From contig NZ_JAIXUB010000001.1 in the NCBI RefSeq assembly GCF_027484205.1, positions 65,528-129,527 of the forward strand: 64,000 bases of DNA, in the 5' to 3' direction. The notes under the pieces are model-generated. The model did no database searches. It saw only the letters and a list, made by a program, of their open reading frames with translations, and was not told where the DNA came from. The position numbers and the translations under genes are program-made. Below, one piece after another: positions 23,919 through 44,158 of the stretch. How positions within the stretch are numbered: position 1 is the first letter of the stretch; the number at the start of each line of letters is the position of its first letter. This DNA is from Flavobacterium sp. (GTDB taxonomy: Bacteria; Bacteroidota; Bacteroidia; Flavobacteriales; Flavobacteriaceae).

Positions 23919-23990
23919 GTTATGTAGCGCAAATATTACCTTATTTGGGTGTATTACCGCTATAACGTAGCGACTATATAAGTTAGTGAC
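23919..23990 (+). other. Array left boundary, candidate attI-like site (imperfect hairpin followed by G|TTAGTGAC)
   Basis: GTTAGTGACAATTG (from 23982) is complementary to the first cassette's end CAACTGTCACTAAA; hairpin at 23919-23966. Confidence 0.55.
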
Positions 23991-24034
23991 AATTGTAAAA
24001 AAAACGGAACGAATTCAATAACTTAATTTAACAA

Positions 24035-24556
24035 ATGAAAGAATTTATAATAGAAAACTGGGATAAAATAGTTTCGGGAATTTTAAGTATTTATGCTACA
24101 ATTTTATCTACTTATACATTTATAAAACAAAAAGACAAACTGAAAGTTGAATTTTCTTTAGGTTATATGCATGTCAAACAGAAGAATTATATGTATAGAC
24201 TAGCATCAATTAACATAATAAATTTGTCGCAAAATCCACTAAAAATTAAAGGCGCAAAATTTCATGACATTAAAGGGAAAATAGTTGATATTTCTGGTGT
24301 TCCTGAAGAAATCACAAAAAATGTGTTGCGTTCAGAAATGGATTTTGAAAATAAAGTTTTTGTTGATGTAAATCAAGAAATGAGCAAATTTGACAAGAAA
24401 ACTCAAATAAATCCCTATGATGATAGATATTTATACTACGATTATATTTCATTGAAAAAGTATATGGACGATAACAAAGTTATCTATTTTACTGTAACTC
24501 ATAACAATGGAAAAAAGAAGATAAAAATTACTAATAAAAAGATATTTGACATGTAA
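24035..24556 (+). CDS. Cassette: hypothetical protein with an N-terminal TM anchor
   Basis: Single ORF between boundary 23982 and site 1. Confidence 0.7.
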   Translation: MKEFIIENWDKIVSGILSIYATILSTYTFIKQKDKLKVEFSLGYMHVKQKNYMYRLASINIINLSQNPLKIKGAKFHDIKGKIVDISGVPEEITKNVLRSEMDFENKVFVDVNQEMSKFDKKTQINPYDDRYLYYDYISLKKYMDDNKVIYFTVTHNNGKKKIKITNKKIFDM

Positions 24557-24564
24557 ACAACTGT

Positions 24565-24699
24565 CACTAAAAACGGTTTAAAAAAATGGTGTGGCTCGGG
24601 ATTTTTCAGAAATGGTAATTGTTGAATCAAAGTTTTATTTACATTTGTAATTGGCAGTGAATGAAGTACGCAACTTCTTGTAGCCGCAAAACGTTAGGC
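24565..24699 (+). repeat. attC-like site 1 (family A)
   Basis: R'' CACTAAA ... GCAACTTCTTGTAGCCGC AAAAC GTTAGGC; TACATTTG at 24640. Confidence 0.85.
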
Positions 24700-24721
24700 T
24701 CAACTATTACAACTAATACTT

Positions 24722-25405
24722 ATGGAAGGAAAAAAGCTAATAAGAACATTATTATCATTAAGCATATTATTCATTCTGATTACGATTGGTTTTTATTTAT
24801 ACCAATTTGGTAGTTTAAGACTTTCAGAAAATAACGAAGATTGGTCTAACTTTTCAAACTATTTTAATGGAATTTTGACACCAATATTAACCTTGTTAAA
24901 TTTACTCATGTTTGCTTACCTAAGTTTTAAATTAGTACAAATTGAGGATGATAGAAATCACTGGACATTACAAGAATTAGCAAGACCATATGCAAATTTA
25001 ATAACTGAAAACACTTCTGGAAGTGTCGAAATTACGGTTCATAATGTTGGACTTGGGCCAATGATATTAACCGATTTCAGAATTTTCAAAGATCCTGAAA
25101 AAACATACAGGAACTTTTACTATTTAATTAATGACATCGCTGATTATGAAAATATAGGTCCAGAAATTCAACCAAAAATTGATTCTTTTGAAGTCAACTC
25201 TGAAAGTGGTGCAATTGCGAAAGACAAATCGCATTGTTTATTGAAAGTTTATTTTTTAGAGGATAGTCAACAAAACATGCAATTTTTAGATTTAATACGT
25301 ATTCATTTGAATGATTATACTCTATCCATAACTTATAGTGATATGTATGGTAGAGAAATAGAATGTATGCGCGAAAAGTTAAATTTTAAACCTTGGAACA
25401 ACTAG
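24722..25405 (+). CDS. Cassette: hypothetical membrane protein (two N-terminal TMs, WSNFSNYFNG motif)
   Basis: ORF fills the interval between sites 1 and 2. Confidence 0.7.
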   Translation: MEGKKLIRTLLSLSILFILITIGFYLYQFGSLRLSENNEDWSNFSNYFNGILTPILTLLNLLMFAYLSFKLVQIEDDRNHWTLQELARPYANLITENTSGSVEITVHNVGLGPMILTDFRIFKDPEKTYRNFYYLINDIADYENIGPEIQPKIDSFEVNSESGAIAKDKSHCLLKVYFLEDSQQNMQFLDLIRIHLNDYTLSITYSDMYGREIECMREKLNFKPWNN

Positions 25406-25409
25406 CAGC

Positions 25410-25542
25410 GCCTAATAGACGTTTCTCGAAATTGCGAATTTTGTGGTAAGTTCACGTTTACGTTTCGCAAGAATTTTTATCTTTAACAGAAAATAATTCG
25501 TTCCGAAGTTCGCAACTGACGAGAAGCGGCAGAACGTTGTGC
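25410..25542 (+). repeat. attC-like site 2 (family B)
   Basis: GCCTAAT A GACGTTTCTCGAAATTGCG ... CGCAACTGACGAGAAGCGGC AGAAC GTTGTGC. Confidence 0.88.
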
Positions 25543-25581
25543 GTCATTTTAACCGAACAAAACCGTAGAAAAAAATAAACA

Positions 25582-26034
25582 ATGTGTGATTTTACCAAAG
25601 GCATTAAATTATGTAGTTGTGAAAACGAAACTATAAAATTTCGTGAACAAGAGTTCTATAAAATGTTAGAAGGCGAACTTGTTAAAATTCCCAATAAAAA
25701 GAATGAAAATGTCCCCATAATTTTTATTTGGAGATTATTCAAATTGAAATCTAAAAATAATAATTACGAAATTGGAAGGTATATGCTTCCTGTAAACGAT
25801 ATTGGAAATGGATTAGATGCTGAATGGATTGCTTTAAATTTAAATTCAGAAAATTGTTTTGATTTTGATTACACTCCTGATGAGGGTGATAATTTATTCA
25901 TTCAGACCAACGAAATTGCTTCAGCATATATTTCATTCATTTTTAGGAATGGTCAATGGAAAATTGACCATTACAGCCCTTTTTCGTGGGATATTAGACA
26001 TGTTAAAGATGGACAAATTAAGGAAACTTTATAA
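25582..26034 (+). CDS. Cassette block gene 1: hypothetical protein
   Basis: 150 aa ORF; similar to the next ORF. Confidence 0.7.
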   Translation: MCDFTKGIKLCSCENETIKFREQEFYKMLEGELVKIPNKKNENVPIIFIWRLFKLKSKNNNYEIGRYMLPVNDIGNGLDAEWIALNLNSENCFDFDYTPDEGDNLFIQTNEIASAYISFIFRNGQWKIDHYSPFSWDIRHVKDGQIKETL

Positions 26035-26043
26035 AAAGTAATA

Positions 26044-26556
26044 ATGTTTGAAATAATAGATATAAATTTCGTTGAAGCAGATATACTTGAAAAAGAAATA
26101 ATTTCTTTTCACATTCCTCATTCAAAGATGCTTAATGAAGACCACAAATATTTTAAAAAAAGAATTGTTTGGACTTTAATAGAATGGAAAGACACTGAAG
26201 ATTATCCATATAAAGAAATTGAAGAAGACGAGAAAAACGGAATTCGTTATCATGAAATACCTGAACAAATAGTAAGTGAAATTAATGGAATTACAAGTGA
26301 ATCTATTAAAGATAAAATTAACGTGAATGATTGTTTTGCTTTTAATTACAACCCAAGAGAATTCGATAAATTGATATTGAGAAGTGATTACGAGTTTCAA
26401 GAGATTAAAGCAATTAGACAGCCTTACAATAGAATATTCAAATATATTGCTCTGACTTACAAAAACGGAGTTTGGGAGATTGATGAGAAAGTGGAAAAAA
26501 GAGTTTTTAAGAAAAGTAGAACAGGAATAGTAAAAATAATGTTAGAAAATGAATAA
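26044..26556 (+). CDS. Cassette block gene 2: hypothetical protein, distant paralogue of 25582-26034
   Basis: Shared motifs W.L..K, NG......N...CF.F.Y.P.E.D.L, YI.....NG.W.ID. Confidence 0.7.
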   Translation: MFEIIDINFVEADILEKEIISFHIPHSKMLNEDHKYFKKRIVWTLIEWKDTEDYPYKEIEEDEKNGIRYHEIPEQIVSEINGITSESIKDKINVNDCFAFNYNPREFDKLILRSDYEFQEIKAIRQPYNRIFKYIALTYKNGVWEIDEKVEKRVFKKSRTGIVKIMLENE

Positions 26557-27076
26557 TGAAAAAAACAGAAAAATGAATGAAAATATAAGATATAGAATAT
26601 ATAAAACCAGTATAAATATTTTCTTTATTTCAATTTATAGTAATTCAAAAGTTTATGAAATCAAAAGTGGTAAAAGTTCAATTTTACCGGGAATAAAATA
26701 TTCAATAATAACAATTTTATTTGGATGGTGGGGATTTGGATTTCCTTGGAAAAAAATTCAAGAGTTAAAAAATTCATTAACGGCATTACATATAAATTTC
26801 TCTGGTGGAGAAGACTATACCAAGGTAATAACTGAAATGGATTACGAAGAAAAAACAGTTTGGGTTTATAACAATCTAAAACATGAACTTTTTGAAAAAA
26901 CTAATATTGAAACTATTGACATTATTATTGATTTACAAACTAATTCAAAATTGACTCTTGAAGGAAATATAATTTTTATAATTGAAAGTTTAAAAAAGTT
27001 GAACATTGTAAACTTAAGAAATTCAGATATAGAAGAAATTATTAATAAAATAAAGCAGTTTGATTATAGAAATTAA
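26549..27076 (+). CDS. Cassette block gene 3: hypothetical membrane protein
   Basis: TM segment ITILFGWWGFGFPW; overlaps the previous stop codon. Confidence 0.65.
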   Translation: MNNEKNRKMNENIRYRIYKTSINIFFISIYSNSKVYEIKSGKSSILPGIKYSIITILFGWWGFGFPWKKIQELKNSLTALHINFSGGEDYTKVITEMDYEEKTVWVYNNLKHELFEKTNIETIDIIIDLQTNSKLTLEGNIIFIIESLKKLNIVNLRNSDIEEIINKIKQFDYRN

Positions 27077-27295
27077 ATGAAAAATGAAATGAAAAAATTA
27101 AATATAATTTTAATTGTATTCTTAAGCTTAACTTCTTTAATATTTGCAGTATTAAATAACTCTAACGCATAAGATTTAAAAACAACTGAAGTAGAACTAA
27201 ATTCAGCAAGAGATTCTTTATCAATGTATCAAGGGAATTATAACAAATTGAATGTACAATATAAAATTTTGGAAAAATCACTTGAAGAAAAATAA
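27077..27295 (+). pseudogene. Small TM/coiled-coil ORF with an in-frame stop
   Basis: MKNEMKKLNIILIVFLSLTSLIFAVLNNSNA*DLKTT...LEEK*; internal TAA at 27170-27172. Confidence 0.55.
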
Positions 27296-27303
27296 AACCG
27301 AAC

Positions 27304-27437
27304 GGCTAACTGCAGTTACAAGAAATTGCTAGGCTTGATTTTTGTCAGAATTCGTTATGCAGAATCAAAGTTTTGGTTATATCTGTAATTGACAGTGAAT
27401 GAAGTACGCAACTTCTTGTAGCTGCGAAACGTTAGCA
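27304..27437 (+). repeat. attC-like site 3 (family A)
   Basis: GGCTAAC T GCAGTTACAAGAAATTGC ... GCAACTTCTTGTAGCTGC GAAAC GTTAGCA. Confidence 0.9.
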
Positions 27438-27445
27438 GATATAGC

Positions 27446-27841
27446 ATGAAAAAAGAACATCAAAACATATTAGAATTAATTCCTAAAGATAAAGGTGATT
27501 ATAAAACTGCTCAAAATCTAAAAAAACACAATATTTCGAAATTAAAATCAATTATACCAAAATTATTGGAATGGATTCAAGATATGAATTGGCCAATTTC
27601 AGTAATAGTTGCTGAATATTTAGTCGATAATTTTAGTGAAATAGAAAACGAAATATATCCAATACTAAATACTAACGATGACATTTGGAAATGGAATGTA
27701 ATAAATATTTTTAAGGATTTAATTGGAGATGAAAAAAGCATTGAATTAATAAAAAGAATAGCTGAAAATCCAACAGAAATGGAAAAACTTGAAGAATTAG
27801 ATTTACTATGCAAAGAAGTTATTGAAAAACGAAAATGGTAA
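27446..27841 (+). CDS. Cassette: DUF5071-like protein
   Basis: LIPKDKGD and LLEWIQDMNWPIS motifs, recognised from memory of the family. Confidence 0.65.
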   Translation: MKKEHQNILELIPKDKGDYKTAQNLKKHNISKLKSIIPKLLEWIQDMNWPISVIVAEYLVDNFSEIENEIYPILNTNDDIWKWNVINIFKDLIGDEKSIELIKRIAENPTEMEKLEELDLLCKEVIEKRKW

Positions 27842-27851
27842 AAACTACATC

Positions 27852-27986
27852 TGCTAACAGCAGTTACAAGAAATTGCTATGCATGGGATTTATCAGAATT
27901 GGAAATTGTTGAATCAGAGTTTTGTCTATATTTGTAATTGTCAGTGAGTGAAGTACGCAACTTCTTGTAGCGGCGAAACGTTAGCA
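27852..27986 (+). repeat. attC-like site 4 (family A)
   Basis: TGCTAAC A GCAGTTACAAGAAATTGC ... GCAACTTCTTGTAGCGGC GAAAC GTTAGCA; TATATTTG at 27927. Confidence 0.9.
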
Positions 27987-28007
27987 TCAATTTTAAATTT
28001 ACGATGT

Positions 28008-28298
28008 ATGTCATTTTTGAAAAATATATTTGGGAAAAAATCTAATGAAGAAGGTACTTTAACTCAAATTAGATTTACAAAAGATAACATTAAAAATTTC
28101 CCGAAATACGAAGCACTGTTGATTGATGGAAAAATAAAGTTTGATTCTTCTGGAAGGCTTCGTTATCTGCATGGAGCACCCGTTGGAGATATGTTATTAA
28201 TAAGAATGAATAAGGATGGTAAAGCTGTCTACAAAGAGTCTGCTAAAGAATGGTTTGATCCAGAAAGTCAAAAAGCAAAAGACTTTTTTTGGAAGTAA
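28008..28298 (+). CDS. Cassette: hypothetical protein (start MSFLKNIFGKK)
   Basis: The ORF-track start 27948 lies inside site 4; the ATG at 28008 is the plausible start. Confidence 0.65.
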   Translation: MSFLKNIFGKKSNEEGTLTQIRFTKDNIKNFPKYEALLIDGKIKFDSSGRLRYLHGAPVGDMLLIRMNKDGKAVYKESAKEWFDPESQKAKDFFWK

Positions 28299-28305
28299 AA
28301 ACTGC

Positions 28306-28444
28306 TGCTAACATTGGTTTTCATCAATGGCAAGGCTTGGGATTTATTTGTCATTGGAAAGGTTTTTAATTTAAAGTTTTGTTAATACTTGTAAAGGCTT
28401 GGGCTTGGTTCGTCACCACTTCTTGAAGCCGCGAAACTTTAGCC
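28306..28444 (+). repeat. attC-like site 5 (family A; R' core mutated to TTT)
   Basis: TGCTAAC ... CCACTTCTTGAAGCCGC GAAAC TTTAGCC. Confidence 0.8.
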
Positions 28445-28479
28445 GTCAGTTTGACAGAACGCAAAAAAATCTAAACAGA

Positions 28480-28893
28480 ATGAAAAAAATAATTAGTTTA
28501 ATATATTTTTCAATTTTAATGAATAGCTGTGCTTGGCTTGATGAAAGTGAACATCAAAAAATTATTGGACAATATGAAATTGGCTGGAACGACCTAGAAT
28601 CTAATCGAGCAATTACGAAAAAAATCGAAAATTCTGAAAGTAATTATCAAGAAATTGTTGGATGTTATGTTTTTGCAGTCGGTCATAATGAAAATTTCAT
28701 AATAGCAAAACAACACCAAAATTTTAATTCGAAAACTAATTATTACTTAATAGATATTAAAAAAAATGAAAAAGATTACTCAAAAGGTGTTTTCGGACCT
28801 TTAAACGAAACCGAATTTGAAAAAATGAAAACAAAATTTAATATTAAAAACTTAAAATTTGACTTAAAATTTGCTGATGAACCATATAATTAA
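28480..28893 (+). CDS. Cassette: lipoprotein (DUF3997-like)
   Basis: Lipobox LMNSC; VGHNENFIIAKQH and YYLIDIK motifs; start corrected out of site 5. Confidence 0.6.
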   Translation: MKKIISLIYFSILMNSCAWLDESEHQKIIGQYEIGWNDLESNRAITKKIENSESNYQEIVGCYVFAVGHNENFIIAKQHQNFNSKTNYYLIDIKKNEKDYSKGVFGPLNETEFEKMKTKFNIKNLKFDLKFADEPYN

Positions 28894-28956
28894 ATCAAAC
28901 AAAAAATCGAAAAGAAAAAATCGAAAAGAAAAACTCATAAAAGAAAAAAAACGAAC

Positions 28957-28975
28957 GGCTAACAGCAGTTTACAA
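28957..28975 (+). repeat. attC-like site 6, collapsed (R'' and start of left arm only)
   Basis: GGCTAAC AGCAGTTTACAA, then AT-rich sequence and the ATG at 28993; no loop, right arm or R'. Confidence 0.6.
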
Positions 28976-28992
28976 ACATTTTTTACATCGTT

Positions 28993-29343
28993 ATGAAAGA
29001 ACTTTATCCTGAATTAATAGACTATATTTTCCAACATTGTTGGAAATATTACTCTGAAATAGAGAAAGAAGCAATCGACCATCATATTGGAGCTGTGAAG
29101 TTTGATAAATTTGCTTTTCAAAGTCAGAAACTTGATGATGCAAAAACCAGATTTTCAACAGAAAATCCAGAAGCTTTAAAATTATTGGAGAATGGTTACT
29201 CAGAATTTATTAAAACTACAGCGACTAGAATTTTTAATGAGCACGAAAACGAATTGGAATTGAATTTTTGTCCTGGATGTGGAAAAATAGCCAGAACTCC
29301 AAAAGCCAAACAGTGTAGGTTTTGCAGAAATGATTGGCACTAA
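28993..29343 (+). CDS. Cassette: hypothetical protein with a C-terminal zinc ribbon
   Basis: CPGCGKIARTPKAKQCRFC. Confidence 0.7.
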   Translation: MKELYPELIDYIFQHCWKYYSEIEKEAIDHHIGAVKFDKFAFQSQKLDDAKTRFSTENPEALKLLENGYSEFIKTTATRIFNEHENELELNFCPGCGKIARTPKAKQCRFCRNDWH

Positions 29344-29351
29344 AAAACGGC

Positions 29352-29483
29352 AGCTAACAGCGGTTTCTCTCAATTGCGAATTTTGTAGTAAATTCACGTT
29401 TACGTTTCGCAAGAATTTTTATCTTTAACAGAAAAAAATCAGTTCCGAAGCTCACAATCTCTCCAAGCGCCGAAACGTTAGCA
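29352..29483 (+). repeat. attC-like site 7 (family B)
   Basis: AGCTAAC ... GAAAC GTTAGCA; loop shared with sites 2, 12, 13, 14. Confidence 0.87.
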
Positions 29484-29522
29484 GAAAGCGTCTCCAAAAA
29501 TCACGTAACTAAATATGAAAAG

Positions 29523-29837
29523 ATGTTTAAATTAAAAAAAATAACAATTTTACAAATTGAAAAATTTTTAACAATTATATTTTTCTTGATTTTTGTAATC
29601 TTAACAAGAAACACATTAATTGAATCTTACAATAGAATAGAAGATTTGAATACTGAAAAAACTATCAGAATTGTAAATGATAAATCTCAGAATGAAAATT
29701 TGGTTAATTTTACAAAAAAAGACAAAGCTAATTTCTCAAATCATTTGGATGTTTTAATTTTACTCATAATTGGTTTTTTTATTATGTTTTACAAGGTTCA
29801 GAAAAAAATAAATGTAGAAAAAAATAAAATTGAATAA
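29523..29837 (+). CDS. Cassette: small two-TM protein
   Basis: Two hydrophobic segments. Confidence 0.6.
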   Translation: MFKLKKITILQIEKFLTIIFFLIFVILTRNTLIESYNRIEDLNTEKTIRIVNDKSQNENLVNFTKKDKANFSNHLDVLILLIIGFFIMFYKVQKKINVEKNKIE

Positions 29838-29911
29838 TCGGTTTTTAAAAGTTAAAACTAATTGCAAAATAATTGCAAAACAAAAACAGAATTACTAAAA
29901 AAAACGGCTTC

Positions 29912-30050: not shown

Positions 30051-30087
30051 GTAATTTTAAAAAACGCACGTGAATAAAATACGAAAC

Positions 30088-30528: not shown

Positions 30529-30536
30529 AACACTAT

Positions 30537-30699: not shown

Positions 30700-30745
30700 G
30701 CAAGACTACATCAACAGACAAAAAAATCAATAAATAAAGAAAAAA

Positions 30746-36506: not shown

Positions 36507-36527
36507 GATGTTTCAAAAAATATATCT

Positions 36528-38330
36528 ATGAAAATAAGCATCTTAATAATATCCCTTTTTATTTTTGGACAAACTTTTGGCCAAAATAAACAATTGAAAG
36601 ACAGAATTAATCAAGTAGAAAACAACTTAATTCCCTATGTGCCTGTAAAAGGTTTTAATGGTTGGAATATTATTGACAGAATGAAGTATTACAAAGTTCC
36701 AGGATTAAGTATTGCTGTAATAAAAGATTACAAAATTGACTGGGCTAAAGGATATGGATTAGCAGACACAATTCAAAAAACAAAGGTTACAACCGAAACG
36801 ATGTTTTCAGCAGGTTCAATCAGTAAATTTTTAATGGCAGTTACAGCTCTTAAATTAGTTGAAGAGGGAAAAATTGGCTTGGATAGCCCAATTAATGATT
36901 ATCTCACTTCTTGGAAAATTACCGAGAATGACTATACCAAAAAAACGCCTGTTACTCTAAGAATGTTGTTAAGCCATTCGGCAGGTACTTCTCAAACTTC
37001 CTATTTTGGTTTTACACCAACAGAACCACTACCAACGATTGTAGATGTGTTGAATGGTGCGAAAATTTCACAAACAAGAGCTGTAGTTGTAAATAGTGAA
37101 CCCAACAAAGAATTTCGATATTCTGGTGGAGGTAGTATGATTGCGCAAATGGTTTTGATGGACGTTAGCAAAAAGAGTTTTGGTAATTTAACACAACAAG
37201 TACTATTTGACAAAATTGGAATGACCAACTCAACATTTGAACAACCAGTTCCAGAAAAATTTTCTAAACAATGTTCTTGGGCTTATTCGCAAGCCTCATG
37301 GTTTAAAGGAATGCCTTATGTCTATCCACAACAAGCAGCAGCAGGTCTTTACTCAACTCCAACTGACTTGGCTAAATTTTTCATAGATGTTCAAAACTCA
37401 TTCAATGGAAAAGGCAAAGTTTTGAGTGAAGAAATGACAAAAAAAATGCTAACATCGCAAGTAAATGTTTCTGATGGTGGCTATAAAGAACAAATGGCAA
37501 TTGGACCATTTCTAATTCAACGTACAGACAACAAAGACCCAAATGGAGTTTACTTTGAATTTACTGGTGTTAATGCAGGTTTCTTGGCTTATGGAATAGC
37601 GAGTGTACAAGGAGGAAATGGAGTTATTGTAATGCTTAATTCTGGTGACAATCAAAACGGAATTGGAAAAGAAATTAGAAGAGCCGTAGCCAAAGTGTAT
37701 AATTGGACTAACTTTTTACCCGATGAAATTCAACCAATCAATCTGCCTGAAGATGAATTAAACAAAATGGCTGGACGATATAGAATGGCTACAGACGAAG
37801 TACTTTATTTAAGAAAAGAAAAAAACTATCTAGTAGAGAATATAAACAATGGAAATGAAATTTACTGCTTCCCAATCTCAAAAGATAGCATTGTATTTAC
37901 GGATTACAACATCAAGGGCTTCTTTAAAAGAAATGAAAATGGAGAAATAATCGGGCTTCAAAATATTTATCAAGAAAAGCCAATGCCAAAAATGAAAGAC
38001 AATGAATTTTCGCCAAGTGAATATTTAAATATGCAGCAATATGATGAAGCCAAAAAAGCATTTGCAGCAATGAAAATGAATGAAGGACAAATTACATACT
38101 TAGCCTATGACTTGATGAATAAAAAGCCATTAAACCCATTTGCCGTAAAAACCATTTTAGATTTAGCAACAGAGCAACATCCGAATTCTTCAATGGTTTA
38201 CAGTCGTTGGGGTGACTATTATTTAAAACTAAATGACAAACAAAATGCATTAAAGAGCTATCAAAAAGCCATAGATCTTGACCCAAACGACCAACAAACA
38301 AAAGATATTTTGGAAACCTTAAAAAAATAA
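36528..38330 (+). CDS. Cassette: secreted serine hydrolase (beta-lactamase/PBP-like family) with a C-terminal TPR
   Basis: VPGLSIAVI, SxxK = SISK, LLSHSAG, FRYSGGG, YPQQAAAGLYSTPTDLAKF; TPR YQKAIDLDPND. Confidence 0.85.
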   Translation: MKISILIISLFIFGQTFGQNKQLKDRINQVENNLIPYVPVKGFNGWNIIDRMKYYKVPGLSIAVIKDYKIDWAKGYGLADTIQKTKVTTETMFSAGSISKFLMAVTALKLVEEGKIGLDSPINDYLTSWKITENDYTKKTPVTLRMLLSHSAGTSQTSYFGFTPTEPLPTIVDVLNGAKISQTRAVVVNSEPNKEFRYSGGGSMIAQMVLMDVSKKSFGNLTQQVLFDKIGMTNSTFEQPVPEKFSKQCSWAYSQASWFKGMPYVYPQQAAAGLYSTPTDLAKFFIDVQNSFNGKGKVLSEEMTKKMLTSQVNVSDGGYKEQMAIGPFLIQRTDNKDPNGVYFEFTGVNAGFLAYGIASVQGGNGVIVMLNSGDNQNGIGKEIRRAVAKVYNWTNFLPDEIQPINLPEDELNKMAGRYRMATDEVLYLRKEKNYLVENINNGNEIYCFPISKDSIVFTDYNIKGFFKRNENGEIIGLQNIYQEKPMPKMKDNEFSPSEYLNMQQYDEAKKAFAAMKMNEGQITYLAYDLMNKKPLNPFAVKTILDLATEQHPNSSMVYSRWGDYYLKLNDKQNALKSYQKAIDLDPNDQQTKDILETLKK

Positions 38331-38442
38331 ACAACTGAATTTATAAAGAAAAGAAAAATGTCATTTAAAATGATTCGTCAATTGCATGAAAAATCAATCA
38401 TTCCTACTGATGTTTCGATACAAACTTATTAAAAGACACAAT

Positions 38443-38567
38443 CGCTAATAGTGTGCAAAACTTCATTACTTAGTTTTCGTTAAGTAGTGCGATTTGTTAC
38501 TATTTTCGTTTTGAGTTAATCCAAAATCTCTGTTGCCAAGATTTAACGAGTTTTCCGAACGAATTAT
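38443..38567 (+). repeat. attC-like site 17, heavily degenerate
   Basis: CGCTAAT...GTGCAAAACTTC versus GAGTTTTCC GAAC GAATTAT; GTT core absent. Confidence 0.35.
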
Positions 38568-38640
38568 TTTTATAACTATATAGATTTCGAAAACTTACAT
38601 AAAAAAGAAAATTTTAAATTAATAAAGTTTTTCGTTAAAA

Positions 38641-39336
38641 ATGAGAAAAATAAATTTATACTTAATAATACTTGTTTCAATTTTTCTAACAAACAAGTCG
38701 TTTTCACAATCTATAATTAATGACAAAGATGGTTTTGTAAATGTCCGAAAAGAGGCTAATAAAGACAGTCAATTAATTGATACCTTAAAAAATGGTCACA
38801 TAATATATGATTTAGAACGAGAAGGAAATTGGGTAAATATCGATTATTTTAAAAATAACGAATCTTTAAGCGGTTATATTTACAACGATAGGTTTAAACG
38901 AATCGAGAAATTTAAAGAAATTAAGAGAAAAACAATCAGTGCTAATGAGGTAGTTTTAGGCAATGATAGTATTGAAATTAGAGTAACTGAGGCAAAATTT
39001 GAACCTAAAAAACACAAATTCACTTATTCGAAGGAAAATAAAAAGGTAATTACTCTCATTGATAAAAAGCAGTATTACGGAACTGATGGCGAAGTACCAA
39101 AAACACAATATGAAGAAATTAAAATGAAGATTAAAGATAAAGTAATTATACTTCCAAAAAGTGCGACAGAAAATTTATATGAACCGAGTATAAATAAAAT
39201 TACTGTTCATTATGACGAAATTAATAAAACAATCTACATAGATTCAATTAATAGCGATGGTGCTGGCGGTTATGTTGTGGTTTGGAAAATAAAAAAAGAA
39301 AAATTTGAAGACAGATATATATTTTATGGTTTTTAA
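38641..39336 (+). CDS. Cassette: secreted bacterial SH3-domain protein
   Basis: Signal peptide; DKDGFVNVRKE...GNWVNI...GYI; NSDGAGGY.VVW. Confidence 0.7.
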   Translation: MRKINLYLIILVSIFLTNKSFSQSIINDKDGFVNVRKEANKDSQLIDTLKNGHIIYDLEREGNWVNIDYFKNNESLSGYIYNDRFKRIEKFKEIKRKTISANEVVLGNDSIEIRVTEAKFEPKKHKFTYSKENKKVITLIDKKQYYGTDGEVPKTQYEEIKMKIKDKVIILPKSATENLYEPSINKITVHYDEINKTIYIDSINSDGAGGYVVVWKIKKEKFEDRYIFYGF

Positions 39337-39348
39337 TTTAACAAAAAA

Positions 39349-39514
39349 AGCTAACCCTAACTCCAGTTTTTAATTCTGTTTATGCTTACGCTTGCCATTT
39401 TGTTATTCGCGAAAAGTACTCAGATATTTTCAATTTAATCTTTCAAATTAATTCAGTAAATTTGTTTTGCTAGTGATTGCACCAACATCAGGCGTAAGCC
39501 GAAACACGTTAGTC
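39349..39514 (+). repeat. attC-like site 18 (divergent family)
   Basis: AGCTAAC/CCCTAAC; GCTTACGCTTG/CAGGCGTAAGC inverted repeat; TAAATTTG at 39457; GTTAGTC. Confidence 0.6.
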
Positions 39515-39541
39515 GCTTTACTAAAAACTTGAATAAAAAAC

Positions 39542-40099
39542 ATGAGCGAATTACAAACAAAGTATCAAAATGCAATAAAGTTTGCTGCAAAAAAGCATGC
39601 TGATAAAAATCAATTAATCCCGGGAACAAACTTATCTTACGTAGTTCATTTAAGCAATGTTGCAATGGAAATTTTAATTGCTTCTCAAAAAACAGAAACG
39701 TTTGATACAGAATTTGCAATTCAAGTCGCTTTACTCCACGACATATTGGAAGATACAGAAACTACTTTTGATGAACTTGTAAATGAATTTGGAGAAGAAA
39801 TTGCAAAAGCAATTTTATCTTTAACAAAGAACTCTAATATTCCAAAAGAAAAAAGAATGGACGATAGTCTAAATCGTATTAAAGAATTGAAGAAAGAAGT
39901 TTGGGCAGTAAAATTGGCAGACAGAATTACAAACTTACAAGTTCCACCAGAACATTGGAGTATTGAAAAGATTACAGAATATCAAAAACAAGCTGTTCAA
40001 ATACATAATTCCTTAAAAGGCGGAAATGAGTACTTAGAAAACAGACTTAGTAAAAAAATATTAGATTACTTAAAATATTGCGTAACAACTACAGAATAA
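39542..40099 (+). CDS. Cassette: HD-domain small alarmone hydrolase-like protein (RelA/SpoT HD, Mesh1-like)
   Basis: AAKKHADKNQ...YVVHLSNVA, ALLHDILEDT, VKLADRITNL. Confidence 0.85.
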   Translation: MSELQTKYQNAIKFAAKKHADKNQLIPGTNLSYVVHLSNVAMEILIASQKTETFDTEFAIQVALLHDILEDTETTFDELVNEFGEEIAKAILSLTKNSNIPKEKRMDDSLNRIKELKKEVWAVKLADRITNLQVPPEHWSIEKITEYQKQAVQIHNSLKGGNEYLENRLSKKILDYLKYCVTTTE

Positions 40100-40153
40100 T
40101 TACTGATACGAACATCGATTTCAATAATTTACAACAAAAGATAATTTTAAAAT

Positions 40154-40735
40154 TTGAATATGAGAACCAATTCGAAAGTTAAAAAAGATGAAAAGAGCAA
40201 TTTAAAAAAACATAAAAAAATCATCAATTTATCAGTAATAACAGGATTCCTTTTTTTATTGATTTGGATTTTCTTTTTTTATCAAAAGACATTTATAGAT
40301 ATTAAAATTGTATTAGCATTACTTTTCATTCCGAGTTTAATTGTAACAATACTTTTCTATAAAAAATTTGTGCCAATAAGTTTAGAAAACACTCTCCTGA
40401 ATATTTTATCATACATACTCGTCTATTTTCTTATTACTATTCCAATTGGTAATTTTGTAGTAATTTTATTTTTTTCGATAAACACTTTTCTAGCTTCTGA
40501 TCATATTGAAAAAGTAAACTTGAAAATCGAAAATGTGAATGTCACAAAAATCCGAAAACGAACACTTAACAAAAATAACTACTATTCCCATTTTGATGTT
40601 ACCTATAATGGCGTTTTAAAAAGATTTAAAACGGGAGATACACCAATTGATGAACTTGAAAACAAAACTGTAGAGTTCAAGTTAGCCAAAGGTTTTTTTG
40701 GATATTATATAATTAAAGGACGCAAAATTCAATAA
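40154..40735 (+). CDS. Cassette block: three-TM membrane protein
   Basis: Hydrophobic segments; C-terminal KGFFGYYII. Confidence 0.65.
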   Translation: MNMRTNSKVKKDEKSNLKKHKKIINLSVITGFLFLLIWIFFFYQKTFIDIKIVLALLFIPSLIVTILFYKKFVPISLENTLLNILSYILVYFLITIPIGNFVVILFFSINTFLASDHIEKVNLKIENVNVTKIRKRTLNKNNYYSHFDVTYNGVLKRFKTGDTPIDELENKTVEFKLAKGFFGYYIIKGRKIQ

Positions 40736-40737
40736 TA

Positions 40738-41424
40738 ATGATACTACTTACAGAAAAACAAGCCAATGATTTAATCACGTTTGTAGAAGATAAATTAACT
40801 ACAAAATCGTGCAATCACAAATTAACTTTTGCAATGCAATGGGCAAAAAAAAATAAAATTGACTTAGAAGATTTTGAAGATTTGATGTTGGAACAAGGTT
40901 GCGGTTGTGATTGCGAAGTGGTTTTGAACTTACCAAATGAAGGCGATTTAGAGTTGGAAGAAGAAAAAGAAAAAAACGATGATAACATAAACCCATTCAA
41001 AATCCCAGCTATTTTTGTTGAAGACTTATCGAAATTGTACGACAAAGCACTTTTTACAAGTGATGATTTAGATTATAATATCCACACAAGTCCAAATGAA
41101 ATTTTAATTCCAGCACCATACGGATATAAACCTAAAAAAAAAATGCCCAGAAGCGACTGGTTTTTCATTAGTTCAATAAGTGAAATGCCTAATGGTTTAG
41201 GTTTTGTAAAGCAAATTGAACCCATTTCAGCAATTGAATTTTCAAAAAAAATAAGAAACTCAAATATTGAATGTTTAAAAGACTTTTCGCCAAGAGCGGC
41301 ATCTTATTATTTTTCAAGAATCGAATTGCAACAAATTGGTAATGGAATGTGGTGCCATTTTTTAGAAAGAACAGGAATTGGAGGATTTAGTGTAGATTTA
41401 AAAATTAACAAAGCAGTAAGATGA
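40738..41424 (+). CDS. Cassette block: DUF2695-domain protein
   Basis: CNHKLTFAMQW...LEQGCGCDCEVVLN. Confidence 0.7.
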   Translation: MILLTEKQANDLITFVEDKLTTKSCNHKLTFAMQWAKKNKIDLEDFEDLMLEQGCGCDCEVVLNLPNEGDLELEEEKEKNDDNINPFKIPAIFVEDLSKLYDKALFTSDDLDYNIHTSPNEILIPAPYGYKPKKKMPRSDWFFISSISEMPNGLGFVKQIEPISAIEFSKKIRNSNIECLKDFSPRAASYYFSRIELQQIGNGMWCHFLERTGIGGFSVDLKINKAVR

Positions 41425-41434
41425 TAAAAACTTA

Positions 41435-41566
41435 CACTAAAAGCGGTTTGATAAAATGGCAAATTTTATGGTAAATACAAGTTTATATTTTACAAGAAAT
41501 TTTATCTTTATCAGAAAATAATTAGTTCCGAGGTTTTCAATCTTGTTAAACGCCAGAACATTACTA
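41435..41566 (+). repeat. attC-like site 19 (family B; cores AAA/ATT)
   Basis: CACTAAA ... family-B loop ... AGAAC ATTACTA. Confidence 0.78.
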
Positions 41567-41660
41567 GCAATTGACTAGCAGGATGGAGAATTCAATAACT
41601 TAATGCAGAAAAGATATTTTTTATCTTTATTGAATTGTGGAAAAAAACAAAATTTAAAAT

Positions 41661-42152
41661 ATGTTAATACCAATTATTTTCTTTTCAACTTTTTTTATAT
41701 TAATATTATTTTTTATAAACTCAATAAATAAAAACAGAGAAAATCAATATAAATTCTTAATTGAAAGTTTAAAAACTGAGACAGAACTTTATATTGAGCA
41801 GACCAAAATCGCAACTATGACAATGGGGCGAAATAATCGAGATTTTTTATTTAATCGTTGCGATTTATATTTGACTAAAAACGCTATGATAATTTTAGGT
41901 TTTACTAAAAATAGTTTTCTAAAACAACTCTCTTTACCAATTATTTTAACAACAGAACTTAGCGAACTTTCAAATAGGTTTCCATTTGCATATGTAAAAA
42001 AAGTAAATAAGATAAGCTTTGAGAATAATATTGTGAAGATTAATTTTGGAGAAAAAGGAATTACTAAAACAGAAGTTACACTGAAATTTAACTCACTGAG
42101 CGAAATTGAAAAAACAAAAATTAAAGAATTAGTTGAAAAAAACTGCTGGTAA
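41661..42152 (+). CDS. Cassette: hypothetical protein with an N-terminal TM
   Basis: Its stop TAA lies inside R'' of site 20. Confidence 0.7.
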   Translation: MLIPIIFFSTFFILILFFINSINKNRENQYKFLIESLKTETELYIEQTKIATMTMGRNNRDFLFNRCDLYLTKNAMIILGFTKNSFLKQLSLPIILTTELSELSNRFPFAYVKKVNKISFENNIVKINFGEKGITKTEVTLKFNSLSEIEKTKIKELVEKNCW

Positions 42153-42277
42153 CAACAGTTTGGTAAAATGGAGAATTTTGTGGTAAATACAAGTTTATAT
42201 TTTACAAGAAATTTTATCTTTATCGAAAATAATTAGTCCCGAGGTTTGTAACCTTGTTTAGTACCATAACGTTAGCA
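42147..42277 (+). repeat. attC-like site 20 (family B)
   Basis: TGGTAAC ... ATAAC GTTAGCA. Confidence 0.8.
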
Positions 42278-42284
42278 AACATTT

Positions 42285-43124
42285 ATGAAAAACAGTATCT
42301 TTTTCTTCATATGTTCATTATTCTCACAATTTGCACATTGCCAGGAAATGAGCATGGAGGATGAATTATATGTATTTCACTCTCCTTCAACTGGTAAAGT
42401 TGGCTATATGAATAATCATGATGAAATTATTATTCCTGCACAATATTCATCAGCTAGCTCTAAATTTAATATGTATGTTGTAACTCTTGGTAAAATAAAT
42501 TCAGGAGAAGAAAAATATGCTCTTTATGATAGTCGTGGTAATTTCATTTTAGGATTTGAAAATAATTATGAATTTATTAGTTTGTCAGATTATGAGGAAA
42601 GTCTTATTCAAGTTCAGAAAAATGGCAAATATGGTTACGTAAATAAAGAAAATGAGATTAAAATTCCAATCATATATGACGAGGTATTACAATTAGGGAA
42701 TGGATTGATAACGGCTCACAAGAATGGCAAATATGGTTTTATTGATTTTTCAGGCAATATAATTATTGAATTTCAATATGAGGATGTATTCATCTTTGGA
42801 GAGATACAAAGTGACAATCACAAATACTGCCAAATTTCAATAAATGGAAAGTATGGGTTTATTAACGAAAATGGACAAAATGTAATTCCATGTATCTATG
42901 ATTCAGTAACTCAATTTCACAAAGATATTTCAGAAGTAACTATTAATGAAAAACATGGAGTTATAAATACAAGTGGAGAGATTTTAATCCCAATATTGTA
43001 CGACCATTTAAAAGAAGATTACGAAACAAGTCAATTTGTAGCAACTATCAATTCAAAACCAAAGTATGAATTTATATACGACAGAACAGGGATTTTTATA
43101 AAGAGAAGAAAAGTTTCTAACTAA
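42285..43124 (+). CDS. Cassette: secreted WG-repeat protein
   Basis: Repeated KNGKYG(Y/F)I..G..IIP..YD units. Confidence 0.85.
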   Translation: MKNSIFFFICSLFSQFAHCQEMSMEDELYVFHSPSTGKVGYMNNHDEIIIPAQYSSASSKFNMYVVTLGKINSGEEKYALYDSRGNFILGFENNYEFISLSDYEESLIQVQKNGKYGYVNKENEIKIPIIYDEVLQLGNGLITAHKNGKYGFIDFSGNIIIEFQYEDVFIFGEIQSDNHKYCQISINGKYGFINENGQNVIPCIYDSVTQFHKDISEVTINEKHGVINTSGEILIPILYDHLKEDYETSQFVATINSKPKYEFIYDRTGIFIKRRKVSN

Positions 43125-43132
43125 AAAACTTT

Positions 43133-43265
43133 TACCAACAGCAGTTTCTCTCAATTGAGAATTTTGTAATAAATTCACGTTTACGTTTCGTAAGAAATTT
43201 TATCTTTGATATAAAATAATTGGTTCTAAGATATGCAACTGAAAAGAAGTGACGGAACGTTAGCA
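43133..43265 (+). repeat. attC-like site 21 (family B)
   Basis: TACCAAC ... TATCTTTG at 43201 ... GGAAC GTTAGCA. Confidence 0.85.
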
Positions 43266-43290
43266 TAATTTTTTTATATCAACAACATAG

Positions 43291-44007
43291 ATGAATATTA
43301 TTAGAGAGATAAAACATTTTTTTCAAAGACGAAAAGCACTTAATGAAATTTATGATGATCTTAATAACTTAGATGAAGTTCATTTAGACAAAAGAATAGA
43401 AATTTTCAATGAAATTGTAACTCCAAAGTTAGCAGAAATAGGGTTAGTCAATTGGAATGGTAAATACATTTGGTTTAGTAATTTTAACGAAGAGGGAATT
43501 AAACACGTAGTGGAATATAATGTGTTTAAGTATTTTGGTGGATCTTTTTCGTATGGAAACTGTTATAACTTCATACCAACTATTTCTGGACGTAAATTAA
43601 TTTATCACAAGACCGACAAGTCAACTAAAATCATTTATTACAAAAAGTCTGAAGGTTGGCAAAAAAGTGATGATGAACATTCTCCTATAAACATAGATAA
43701 GGTAAGTACTGTAAACGAAGAAAAATTTCGTAAAAGTTTAAATGAAGTTTTAGATAGAAATATTTCAAAATTTCAAAAATGGTTTCAACAGAATGAATCT
43801 ATCGAACAAAATATTCAAAATTTAATAAAAGATATTGAACAAGAAAAAAAAGAATTTATTCGTAGAATTATATCCTTTGATTACATTCTATGCTTTTTGT
43901 ACACTCGGAAAGGTGATGTCGATGCCGCCAAAAAACATTTTAATCAACACATAAAAAGAAATTTAAGTAGTCCAACAGAAATAGAACTTTTAAAAGAGAA
44001 AATATAA
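43291..44007 (+). CDS. Cassette: hypothetical cytoplasmic protein
   Basis: 238 aa ORF between sites 21 and 22. Confidence 0.7.
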   Translation: MNIIREIKHFFQRRKALNEIYDDLNNLDEVHLDKRIEIFNEIVTPKLAEIGLVNWNGKYIWFSNFNEEGIKHVVEYNVFKYFGGSFSYGNCYNFIPTISGRKLIYHKTDKSTKIIYYKKSEGWQKSDDEHSPINIDKVSTVNEEKFRKSLNEVLDRNISKFQKWFQQNESIEQNIQNLIKDIEQEKKEFIRRIISFDYILCFLYTRKGDVDAAKKHFNQHIKRNLSSPTEIELLKEKI

Positions 44008-44021
44008 ATTATGCAAGCTTC

Positions 44022-44158
44022 TGCTTACAACACCTTCAAGAAATGTCCATACAAGGGATTTATCAGAAATTGGAAAGTTTTAATTTAAAGTTTTAGTTAT
44101 ATTTGTAAGGGCTTGGTTTTGGTTCATATCCACTTCTGGTAGCGGCAAAACGTTAGCA
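44022..44158 (+). repeat. attC-like site 22 (family A; R'' core TAC)
   Basis: TGCTTAC ... TATATTTG at 44098 ... CCACTTCTGGTAGCGGC AAAAC GTTAGCA. Confidence 0.82.

Follow-up and report, generated by a model that had tools for sequence, protein, structure and literature searches.

A chromosomal cassette array of probable integron type in a Flavobacterium-like genome

Layout of the array

The window, the whole stretch of 64,000 nucleotides analysed here, carries on a Flavobacterium-type chromosome a cassette array of 21.5 kb (23982..45512, plus strand) with about 23 cassettes. The basic unit consists of a gene and, behind it, a recombination site of about 120 nt; 26 of the 27 ORFs lie on the plus strand and one on the minus strand, while the sites, 20 full and two truncated over the whole array, occupy a single strand with fixed polarity throughout. 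Most cassettes contain small ORFs of unknown function, accompanied by toxin-antitoxin and defence-like genes, and the array of this organism is found in one stable form in the assembled contigs of four metagenomes. A preliminary description had given the span as 23982-44158, of which the start holds and the end does not, since the last site ends at 45512, one cassette further; this extra unit (44152-45364) is a cassette encoding a T9SS-tail protein, and its ends pair.

At the head of the array (23898-23981), a promoter-like box precedes an attI-like platform. The box, TATATTTG, fits the Bacteroidetes -7 consensus TAnnTTTG and is, as read from the sequence, a candidate array promoter; in relatives it is placed after the recombinase stop codon. 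The platform has a conserved core (ACCTTATTTGGGTGTATTA) between a pair of palindromic units of 15 nt each (23915-23929 and 23958-23972), with ACTATATAA lying 3′ of them, directly before the first GTT. The platform, too, can form a hairpin, the stem of which covaries; its architecture is homologous to the ~100-nt region between recombinase stop and first cassette in 18 other loci, and it is nearly identical to the platform of locus L109. Neither a recombinase gene nor a remnant of one was found in the whole 64-kb window, including upstream of the platform, and this "orphan platform" layout, platform and cassettes without recombinase, was found again in 12 other loci.

The features are listed below; all 20 full sites were detected by nhmmer, and "own-end match" counts the matches between the start of a cassette and the reverse complement of its own end.

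23898..23905, plus: TATATTTG box heading the platform site, candidate promoter
23915..23981, plus: attI-like platform
24557..24693, plus: site 1, 15-nt R'' arm through G of GTT; cassette 23983-24693; 95 bits; own-end match 14/18
25402..25536, plus: site 2; cassette 24694-25536; own-end match 11/18
27296..27431, plus: site 3; ends the 1.8-kb multi-ORF unit 25537-27431, the start of which does not pair here
27844..27980, plus: site 4; DUF5071 cassette; own-end match 14/18
28298..28438, plus: site 5; junction TTT, not GTT; own-end match 14/18
28949..28990, plus: truncated site; R'' arm (AAAACGAACGGCTAAC) and beginning of L'' kept, remainder and start of the next cassette deleted; the arm has kept its pairing with the 28438 start (12/18)
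29344..29477, plus: site 6
29904..30044, plus: site 7; own-end match 13/18
30529..30693, plus: site 8, long variant (151 nt from C to G); own-end match 13/18
31836..31870, plus: truncated site; R'' arm (AAAGCCCAGCCACCAAC) and a few more bases left; pairs with the 30693 start (12/18)
32504..32670, plus: site 9, 3′ of the sole minus-strand ORF (31969-32484)
33266..33399, plus: site 10; own-end match 14/18
33916..34045, plus: site 11; junction ATT; cassette 33400-34045; own-end match 14/18
34730..34864, plus: site 12; junction ATT; own-end match 12/18
35412..35550, plus: site 13; own-end match 13/18
36344..36500, plus: site 14; cassette 35551-36500
39347..39508, plus: site 15, divergent (41 bits); closes the two-ORF unit 36501-39508, which has unpaired ends and is apparently rearranged or fused
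41427..41560, plus: site 16; junction ATT; closes a 3-ORF unit with unpaired ends
42139..42271, plus: site 17; own-end match 11/18
43125..43259, plus: site 18; WG-repeat protein cassette; own-end match 12/18
44014..44152, plus: site 19
45350..45512, plus: site 20, the last; cassette 44153-45512, T9SS-sorted protein; own-end match 10/18, rank 1 on positions 6-18

Complementarity of cassette ends

It had been proposed that the two ends of each cassette are complementary to one another, and the 12 start/end pairs listed in support of this are all present in the sequence where they had been placed. In the 20 window cassettes delimited by a GTT junction on the 5′ side and by R''(AAC) on the 3′ side, the start matched the reverse complement of its own end at 11.65 of 18 positions, compared with 8.83 for all non-own pairs and 8.95, which equals background, for the physically adjacent end within the same array site. 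Own-end pairing clearly exceeded shuffled pairings, as none of 100,000 permutations reached the observed total (z about 8.4-8.5); the same test on the variable positions 6-15 alone gave z=9.2, and for 13 starts the own end ranked first of 20 (positions 4-18). Three of the 20 units are without own-end pairing (25536-27310, 36500-38449/39361 and 39508-41441), and a search of the whole window found no partner for the 25536 start. These units hold 2-4 ORFs apiece and look like fused cassettes with lost internal sites, the unit that ends at site 3 probably being a fusion of this kind.

Other Flavobacterium genomes provided a replication of the pairing, with 252 unique, independent cassettes at 81 loci. 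Own-pair identity was 81-94% at positions 4-9 and 12-15, 65% at position 10, 1% at position 11 and at background (15-22%) from position 16 onward, while random and array-neighbour pairs gave 26-70% (z about 45 for own pairing). In these cassettes the complementarity is exactly 15 bp long, with an invariant non-pair at position 11.

Structure of the recombination site

As it stands in the array, a site is a chimera, derived up to the G of GTT from the upstream cassette and, for TT and the next 12 nt, from the downstream one. Joining the two ends of one cassette, as in an excised circle, yields a long imperfect hairpin, which comprises an R stem of 15 bp (an nGCTAAC/GTTAGCn core plus 8 further bp, position 11 being the invariant non-pair), an internal loop with unequal sides (A opposite GGAAC) adjoining the crossover, an L stem of 21 bp with two more conserved non-Watson-Crick positions, and a terminal region of ~75 nt. 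Both stems covary among 276 reconstituted sites: R-stem pairs 6/148 to 12/142 occur as 2-4 pair types and are 67-94% Watson-Crick, and L-stem pairs 18/132 to 32/118 covary likewise. The non-pairs are themselves conserved, namely 5/149 C.A (92%), 21/129 T.G (92%) and 30/120 A.C (97%), and bulged extrahelical bases are absent from these structures. Site length is highly uniform (median 120 nt, interquartile range 120-121, n=384).

Predicted folding favours the reconstituted site over the array form by 5.9 kcal/mol, and makes the bottom strand stabler than the top in 223 of the 276 sites (p=8e-32), a bias that concerns predicted energies only, because conserved mismatches occur on both strands (two on the top, one on the bottom, plus wobbles). 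Most sites also contain a strand-specific, promoter-like TAnnTTT(G/A) motif, for which the Bacteroidetes -33 element is mostly missing, with a TTG at the correct distance in 50 of 318 motifs.

Mobility of the cassettes

Homologous cassettes in different genomes have different neighbours, and their homology stops at most 1-4 nt from the downstream GTT. The window cassette 33399-34045 shares 90.8% identity with a copy in an array of F. luminosum, and the cassette 35551-36500 is 73% (nucleotide) and 75% (amino acid) identical to a homologue in another array (L015). In four metagenome contigs, recombinase and platform are 99.8-100% identical over 1,200 nt, up to ...ATAAACAAGTT, and past the GTT the contigs are unrelated (26-39% identity); therefore a single insertion point is followed by four different first cassettes. 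In locus L121, one of the sites has at its R'' AA|C an insertion with a group II intron reverse transcriptase encoded on the opposite strand, and group IIC-attC introns behave likewise at classical attC sites (PMC3001079).

The earlier proposal that the units were inserted singly by site-specific recombination, and not by duplication of a repeat, is thus supported along four independent lines, by own-end pairing in the window and in the 252 cassettes, by homologues with differing neighbours and homology ending near GTT, by the four first cassettes at one platform, and by the cassette proteins of the window, which are not paralogues of one another, together with its interleaved sites of at least three sequence subfamilies. 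Placement of the crossover at G|TT was borne out in part: it lies within C.G.T.T, and since GTT and the preceding C are invariant, the data do not pin it to the step between G and TT.

Recombinase of related arrays

In relatives, the arrays are preceded on the same strand by the gene of a dedicated tyrosine recombinase and, after this gene, by the attI-like platform. The recombinase is the most recurrent non-cassette protein near arrays (11 loci, always upstream and co-directional), a reverse search starting from the protein again revealed platform and sites downstream, and no other recombinase family recurs across about 815 kb of array-bearing loci. The protein, which has the Pfam domains Phage_integrase and Phage_int_SAM_4, scores 208-228 bits against the NCBIfam XerA model NF040815 (cutoff 220) and 190-202 bits against the integron-integrase model TIGR02249 (cutoff 265), the latter alignment being split at model positions ~180-254. 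Where VchIntIA has 62 aa it has 20, the IntI-specific insertion (I2 helix) is absent from its AF2 model, XerA is its best Foldseek match (PDB 5hxy and 4a8e), and its N-terminus carries an extra beta-rich domain of about 60 aa. Hence it is a member of the Xer/IntI branch without the IntI-specific insertion. The I2 helix is held to be the innovation that enabled integrases to recombine single-stranded hairpins (PMC7790495), and its absence from this recombinase counts against single-strand hairpin recombination here.

Nature of the system

We consider it likely that the region is an integron-type chromosomal cassette array in a Flavobacterium-like genome, operating as follows. The recombinase would excise cassettes as circles and insert them at the platform, cutting inside C.G.T.T; it would recognise a folded single strand, probably the bottom one, through shape and not sequence, and the conserved mismatches may take the role that extrahelical bases have in classical attC. 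A recombinase gene at another place in the genome could serve the array of the window in trans, or the array may now be frozen, and the TAnnTTT(G/A) motif may act as a promoter for the following cassette. The suggestion that these units form an integron agrees with their behaviour, strict membership being contradicted by a recombinase that lacks the IntI-defining domain and has no representative in the window. Because the enzyme beside such arrays in relatives is not a canonical integron integrase, the system looks like an apparently undescribed variant of the integron system, and no description of one was found in the searchable literature.

The same cassette system might instead recombine as double-stranded DNA, in the style of Xer/dif and pdif modules, or as a cruciform, with the hairpin used for example in termination or protein binding. 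Such a mode, which we judge unlikely, would suit the palindromic junction AACGTT and also the recombinase, which is nearest to XerA, itself an enzyme of double-stranded DNA, and has no I2 helix, the element associated with recombination of single strands. In duplex form, however, the sequences on either side of the crossover do not make up an inverted repeat, and the R-arm/spacer/L-arm core (GCTAAC-AGCC-GTTTGGC) arises only on the folded strand. The arm sequences are free to vary while complementarity is kept, the hallmark of structural recognition; the site is targeted by the group II intron in the manner of a stem-loop; and termination in the array cannot be the role of the 15-bp R stem, which forms only once the cassette is circular. 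Less probable still is an ordinary integron remnant (CALIN) with classical attC sites, a canonical IntI with I2 elsewhere in the genome and the Xer-like recombinase as a bystander. Against it stands the enzyme abutting the platform, which is the I2-less recombinase in 11 of 11 loci found through their sites, in the same position and orientation, and likewise in the loci found through the protein, with no other recurrent family in the 815 kb; the sites also lack bulged extrahelical bases, and IntegronFinder surveys of complete genomes reported almost no integrons in Bacteroidetes (PMC9024848). What a remnant would explain is the classical appearance of the R-box consensus, the two-simple-site layout, the GTT junction and the cassette content, and that the 64-kb window has no recombinase whatever.

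That the repeats are REP/MITE-like or regulatory intergenic elements, spread by duplication or transposition between ordinary chromosomal genes, is scarcely credible. They are indeed intergenic, ~140 nt long, capable of forming hairpins and furnished with a promoter-like motif, and the array is stable across four metagenomes; yet duplication predicts that a start matches the neighbouring site, and the opposite is seen, the match being with its own far end, so that the own-versus-neighbour test effectively refutes the duplication reading. Gene and site travel jointly between genomes, the sites keep one strand and polarity, and arrays start at a conserved platform beside the recombinase with a varying first cassette.

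Comparison with known systems

In the superintegron of Vibrio cholerae, a sedentary chromosomal integron, the VCR attC sites are ~120-130 nt long. The present arrays resemble sedentary chromosomal integrons in being long and same-stranded, with small ORFs of mostly unknown function and, behind every ORF, an imperfect-palindrome site that is homogeneous and about 120 nt long, in their RYYYAAC/GTTRRRY-type R box, in toxin-antitoxin and defence-like cassettes, and in the apparent entry of new cassettes at a platform beside the recombinase; in both the crossover is at GTT, so the first bases past the junction belong to the next cassette. They differ in a recombinase without the IntI-specific domain, an R stem of 15 bp with a fixed mismatch instead of 7 bp, an asymmetric spacer (1 vs 5 nt) without bulged extrahelical bases, a hairpin-forming platform with a covarying stem, the strand-specific promoter-like motif in most sites, and the frequency of platform-bearing arrays that have no recombinase.

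"Inverted-integrase" integrons, known from Treponema denticola, Chlorobi, Planctomycetes and others, share the recombinase gene immediately upstream of the array on the strand of the cassettes, whereas their integrases have the additional IntI domain, missing here, and are recognised by IntegronFinder. XerA, XerC and XerD provide the best sequence and fold matches of the recombinase, aligning contiguously without the IntI insertion; unlike it, these chromosome-dimer resolvases act at one duplex dif site of 28 bp in each replicon and not at arrays of hairpin sites, and the present enzyme has in addition its ~60-aa N-terminal domain and a fixed place heading cassette arrays. Operationally, the window, whose 64 kb contain 20 sites but no recombinase, resembles a CALIN (cluster of attC sites lacking an integron integrase), from which it is distinguished by keeping at its head an attI-like platform and a promoter-like box, neither of which is required of CALINs by definition.

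Organization of the array and pairing of cassette ends

The window is AT-rich (about 30% G+C) and carries typical Flavobacteriia genes, those for T9SS-sorted proteins among them, with SusD-era neighbours in relatives, and its sequence is known from four freshwater metagenomes only. Outside the array, a Flavo-1 RNA motif (Rfam RF01705, 49.9 bits) at 18120-18196 immediately precedes a MiaB-like radical-SAM/TRAM gene (18148-19593) and overlaps its start, and two tandem tRNA-Glu(TTC) genes (both 57.8 bits, starts 116 nt apart) occupy 13562-13750 on the reverse strand, beside prolyl-tRNA synthetase. Between the two genes flanking the array there are 27 ORFs, 26 of them on the forward strand, separated by repeats of about 140 nt; 21 AAC/GTT junctions and 23 ends of the R'' type, the site arm that closes a cassette with (C/T)TAAC, were located in the window.

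Flanks of the array and truncated sites
22531-23757, reverse strand, LysM/NlpC-P60 gene, left flank
28949-28990, forward strand, site visibly truncated in the sequence
31836-31870, forward strand, site visibly truncated in the sequence
45619-47160, reverse strand, acyl-CoA carboxyltransferase gene, right flank

The preliminary description had proposed that each cassette start is complementary to the end of the same cassette and not to the neighbouring site, and all 12 start/end pairs that it quoted are present in the sequence as written. Over the 20 units with two ends, a start pairs with its own end at 11.65 of 18 positions, compared to 8.83 for all other ends and 8.95 for the end that shares the array site with the start, some 120 nt upstream of it, and none of 100,000 shuffled pairings reaches the observed total (z = 8.4, or z = 9.2 on variable positions 6-15 only), which bears out the proposal on both counts. 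As for the crossover placed between G and TT, the downstream bases do pair with their own R'', while the exact cut is resolved only to the invariant C-G-T-T; variants with A or T for G at position 1 pair with neither their own nor the neighbouring R'', and covariation at this position does not locate the crossover. The array had also been closed at 44158, which has to be corrected, as one more cassette lies beyond and the array reaches 45512.

Own-end pairing is absent in three units (25536-27310, 36500-38449/39361, and 39508-41441), which are best read as fused cassettes that have lost their internal sites, because each has two to four ORFs; for the start at 25536 there is no partner end anywhere in the window. 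The cassette proteins of the window are not paralogous, and an Rfam search of the array matched no family, the attC covariance model of IntegronFinder not being part of Rfam.

The product of the cassette at 36528-38330 is a secreted protein of 600 aa that combines a serine beta-lactamase/esterase fold (PF00144) with C-terminal TPR repeats and has distant relatives in four arrays elsewhere (L055, L102, L110, and L113). This fold family takes in esterases and penicillin-binding proteins, and therefore no resistance function is implied.

Own-end complementarity in other genomes

A pattern derived from one site subfamily, run on contigs of one genome per species, returned 117 stretches, nearly all from Flavobacterium and some from Cloacibacterium, Chryseobacterium, Epilithonimonas, and Mariniflexile. 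A profile built from 20 window sites located 397 sites in 119 loci, with a maximum of 12 sites per 8 kb, and site orientation is uniform within every array.

The boundaries of the cassettes are plain in a replication set of 252 unique cassettes independent of the window. Own-end identity at positions 4-15 amounts to 94, 90, 87, 87, 91, 90, 65, 1, 89, 81, 86, and 81%, compared to 26-70% for random and array-neighbour pairs (z = 45 for own pairs), and from position 16 on it falls to the random level of 15-22%, thus the complementarity extends over exactly 15 bp. Within it, a fixed non-pair occupies position 11, where the cassette start has A in 248 of the 252, facing C (213) or G (30) in the top strand, which corresponds to T.G or T.C on the bottom strand.

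Anatomy and predicted folding of the site

Variation among the sites preserves their structure. For 276 reconstituted sites, each consisting of a cassette end joined to its own start, the alignment yielded the following parts, numbered by profile column.

Parts of the reconstituted site
Columns 1-15 / 139-153: R stem, 15 bp, with a fixed non-pair at 5/149 (C.A, 92%)
Columns 16 vs 134-138: internal loop, one base (A) against GGAAC
Columns 17-37 / 113-133: L stem, 21 bp, with a fixed T.G at 21/129 (92%) and a fixed A.C at 30/120 (97%)
Between the L-stem arms: terminal region, about 75 nt

Both stems covary, with two to four Watson-Crick pair types at variable positions and 67-94% Watson-Crick pairing. 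The consensus reads nGCTAAC...GTTAGCn, and among 411 mapped sites (T/C)AAC is found at R'' in 362 and NNCGTT at R' in 365. In terms of simple sites, one strand gives GCTAAC-AGCC-GTTTGGC and the other GCCAAGC-GGCGGAAC-GTTAGC. Measured over 384 sites, a median of 120 nt (interquartile range 120-121) separates the C of AAC from the G of GTT. This layout is that of the classical attC (1L-2L / 2R-1R), with a 4-vs-8-nt spacer asymmetry and without bulged bases: the L stem keeps a single register (i+j=150) over its 21 positions, and no conserved bulge was found in it among the 276 reconstituted sites. Folding predictions with DNA parameters make the reconstituted form 5.9 kcal/mol more stable than the array form, and the bottom strand more stable than the top (-26.6 vs -23.8 kcal/mol, a difference of 2.8; 223 of 276 sites, p = 8e-32).

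A promoter-like motif within the sites

In 297 of 384 sites, the cassette strand has the motif TAnnTTT(G/A), which is close to the Bacteroidetes -7 promoter box, at 45-54 nt before the junction G; the other strand has it in only 24 sites, where 51 would be expected by chance.

Examples of the motif in the window
27927-27934, forward strand
29990-29997, forward strand
33342-33349, forward strand

Since the motif is strand-specific and the same box also follows the recombinase stop codon, the sequence suggests that each site may bring a predicted promoter for the next cassette. The -33 TTG is mostly missing at these motifs, and RNA-seq contigs of F. psychrophilum cover an array and give no 5′ ends for starts inside sites.

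The platform and arrays without a recombinase

About 100 nt from the recombinase stop codon to the first GTT form a conserved platform, present in 18 loci and in the window.

Elements of the platform, in order from the recombinase stop
TAnnTTTG box, first after the stop
Hairpin or pair of palindromic units, differing in sequence between loci with pairing kept
Conserved core, ..CTACC.AAA.TTGG.TG.ATA..
ATATA(A/T)AC.A, directly before GTT

The window platform (23898-23981) is almost identical to that of another locus, L109, and lacks the recombinase gene; no recombinase or remnant of one was found in the 64 kb. Such orphan platforms with an array and no recombinase occur in 12 other loci (L011, L023, L025, L061, L065, L077, L080, L089, L095, L100, L101, and L104), downstream of housekeeping genes such as dihydrolipoyl dehydrogenase and IMP dehydrogenase, and their frequency is roughly that of platforms with a recombinase. 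The 21.5-kb block of orphan genes in the window is explained as an array that has an intact platform and no recombinase. The four freshwater metagenomes, compared at the nucleotide level only with a related recombinase gene, contained no match of at least 80% identity at the right depth.

The associated recombinase

The arrays are associated with a dedicated tyrosine recombinase of 345-352 aa, the only protein family recurring outside cassettes in about 815 kb of array-bearing loci. It is found in 11 loci, where its gene always heads the array at the upstream end and has the orientation of the cassettes. A reverse search from the protein led to three homologues on long contigs and to several metagenome loci, each with the same platform and downstream sites. 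Decayed genes also stand beside arrays, namely one frameshifted copy and two C-terminal remnants (L004:852-1891, L028:4436-4537, and L119:1-145).

The protein comprises Phage_int_SAM_4 and Phage_integrase domains, and its highest score is with the XerA model NF040815 (208-228 bits, cutoff 220), while the integron-integrase model TIGR02249 gives 190-202 bits against a cutoff of 265, the match being split in two with model positions ~180-254 left out. Here 20 residues stand against 62 in VchIntIA, and the alignment to XerA is contiguous. An AlphaFold model (pLDDT 78) predicts with confidence an extra beta-rich N-terminal domain (residues 1-56) and a catalytic domain without insertion; Foldseek ranks XerA first and VchIntIA next, neither Pfam nor the whole-chain Foldseek search identified the N-terminal domain. 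The family is large, with thousands of relatives, and is variously named 'XerD', 'tyrosine-type recombinase/integrase', and 'site-specific tyrosine recombinase/integron integrase' depending on the source.

Evidence for cassette movement

Nine homologous cassette pairs are shared between different genomes with different neighbours, and in these the homology spans the cassette's own site and ends at, or within 1-4 nt of, the downstream GTT. The window cassette 33399-34045 is 90.8% identical to a cassette of F. luminosum. Turnover of the first cassette at the platform is seen in four metagenome contigs from different samples (L128-L131), which are 99.8-100% identical over 1,200 nt up to ...ATAAACAAGTT and unrelated from the first base after ATAAACAAGTT, so that one platform is followed by four different first cassettes, all with A at position 11 of their starts. 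Many metagenome contigs break about 200 nt past the recombinase gene, a pattern that a variable or repetitive array in the population would be expected to produce.

Circle junctions and excision products were sought in public data, and the Logan contigs of the four freshwater metagenomes show one stable array at even depth. Their sole skip joint (28429>29943, one contig, run X1), which bypasses 1,513 nt or two cassettes, is uninformative on excision because it lies in the homologous part of two similar sites, away from GTT; an assembly path or a variant arisen by homologous recombination may account for it. In F. psychrophilum DSM 3660, a 608-nt unit at a contig end (L064:5273-5899) runs from a normal GTT junction to a second copy of the same 20-mer, GTTATGGCACAGCGCCGAA; the inverted repeat at its end (GAGCCCCCGCT...AGCGGGGGCTC) is GC-rich and does not resemble the family site. 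One RNA-seq contig links the end of this unit to its start, and the unit could be a tandem copy, another kind of cassette, or a circle. The joint, which goes back 608 nt, was considered as a circle junction and left out of the evidence, since the 20-nt direct repeat already present in the reference contig explains it and the unit ends in a different inverted repeat.

Cassettes beside the recombinase in L123 (11201-18426) encode a 999-aa NACHT NTPase, a 736-aa AAA_13 ATPase, and an MNT/HepT toxin-antitoxin pair. Defence-like and addiction-like cassettes are known from large chromosomal integrons, and the content of L123 resembles theirs in both respects. In F. daejeonense (JRLG01000023.1), L121:14245-16169 is a group II intron with a reverse transcriptase (RVT_1 and GIIM) and a 5′ GTGTG, on the strand opposite to the cassettes, and a second intron reverse transcriptase lies further along the same array. 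The first intron sits between a cassette body and its site, between AA and C of R'', a placement mirroring that of group IIC-attC introns, which insert at classical attC sites (PMC3001079).

A possible mechanism and its significance

In the mechanism that we envisage, cassettes would be excised as circles by a recombinase that would recognise a folded single strand, probably the bottom one, and the window array would be serviced in trans. What speaks most strongly for a folded substrate is that a core site with two arms is present in the hairpin alone, and that these arms vary freely in sequence if pairing is kept. The strongest argument against it is the missing I2 helix, the IntI-specific insertion regarded as the step from double- to single-strand recombination in integrases (PMC7790495). 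We hold it tentatively, with somewhat less than even confidence, that Flavobacterium and related genera possess a widespread, unrecognised integron-type system, in which a recombinase that never acquired or has lost the I2 helix still recombines folded single-stranded hairpins, fixed mismatches act as shape cues replacing extrahelical bases, the platform is a hairpin, and most cassette sites have their own promoter.

If this is true, tyrosine recombinases came to recombine single-strand hairpins, or continue to do so, in the absence of the structural innovation now held necessary for it, and surveys that recognise integrons by the IntI domain would overlook the cassette arrays of an entire phylum. 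The cassette logic can be demonstrated from sequence alone, by own-end pairing, the GTT junction, and a platform with a changing first cassette, and this integron-like logic is found in a phylum in which genome surveys recorded almost no integrons, beside a recombinase without the IntI-defining domain. The system is thus a natural test of the I2-helix requirement for hairpin recombination, and it is likely a blind spot of current integron finders. It also holds a large unexplored pool of Flavobacterium cassettes, the fish pathogen F. psychrophilum included, with defence-like and toxin-antitoxin genes among them.

Comparison with integrons, CALINs, and Xer/dif

Integrons are the model for bacterial gene stockpiling and shuffling, and they are defined by an integrase with one special domain, to which its ability to recombine folded single strands is ascribed. 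Their attC site is an imperfect palindrome, R''-L''...L'-R', with conserved RYYYAAC and GTTRRRY and an otherwise free sequence, and the Flavobacterium sites have this architecture. The folded bottom strand of classical attC, which is the strand recombined, carries extrahelical (bulged) L-box bases, whereas the Flavobacterium sites have fixed mismatches or wobbles at 21/129, 30/120, and 5/149 (R stem). The junction is of the integron type, the bases after the crossover pairing with their own R'' at a resolution limited to C-G-T-T. The integron attI adjoins the integrase and is the entry point of new cassettes, and the platform corresponds to it, although its hairpin architecture differs from classical attI.

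In Xer/dif dimer resolution, a recombinase of about 300 aa that has no additional domains acts on one duplex dif site; here, in contrast, there are arrays of hairpin sites, and the recombinase has an extra N-terminal domain and is fixed at array heads. The window, with 20 sites and no recombinase in 64 kb, would be a CALIN (at least two attC sites, no integrase nearby) only if its sites count as attC. IntegronFinder requires the additional IntI-specific domain (I2 helix around patch III), which is also required for activity (PMC9668308); the recombinase of the relatives lacks this insertion, and the window lacks any recombinase. IntegronFinder surveys of Bacteroidetes recorded hardly any integrons, the finds being limited to In0 elements and a single complete integron in Salinibacter (PMC9024848), and our literature search, which was incomplete in coverage and is no proof of novelty, found no description of native Flavobacterium cassette arrays. 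Under a strict definition, the system falls outside integrons by the integrase-defining domain and the extrahelical bases, and within them by site architecture, junction, and platform; in its behaviour, it is a sedentary chromosomal integron.
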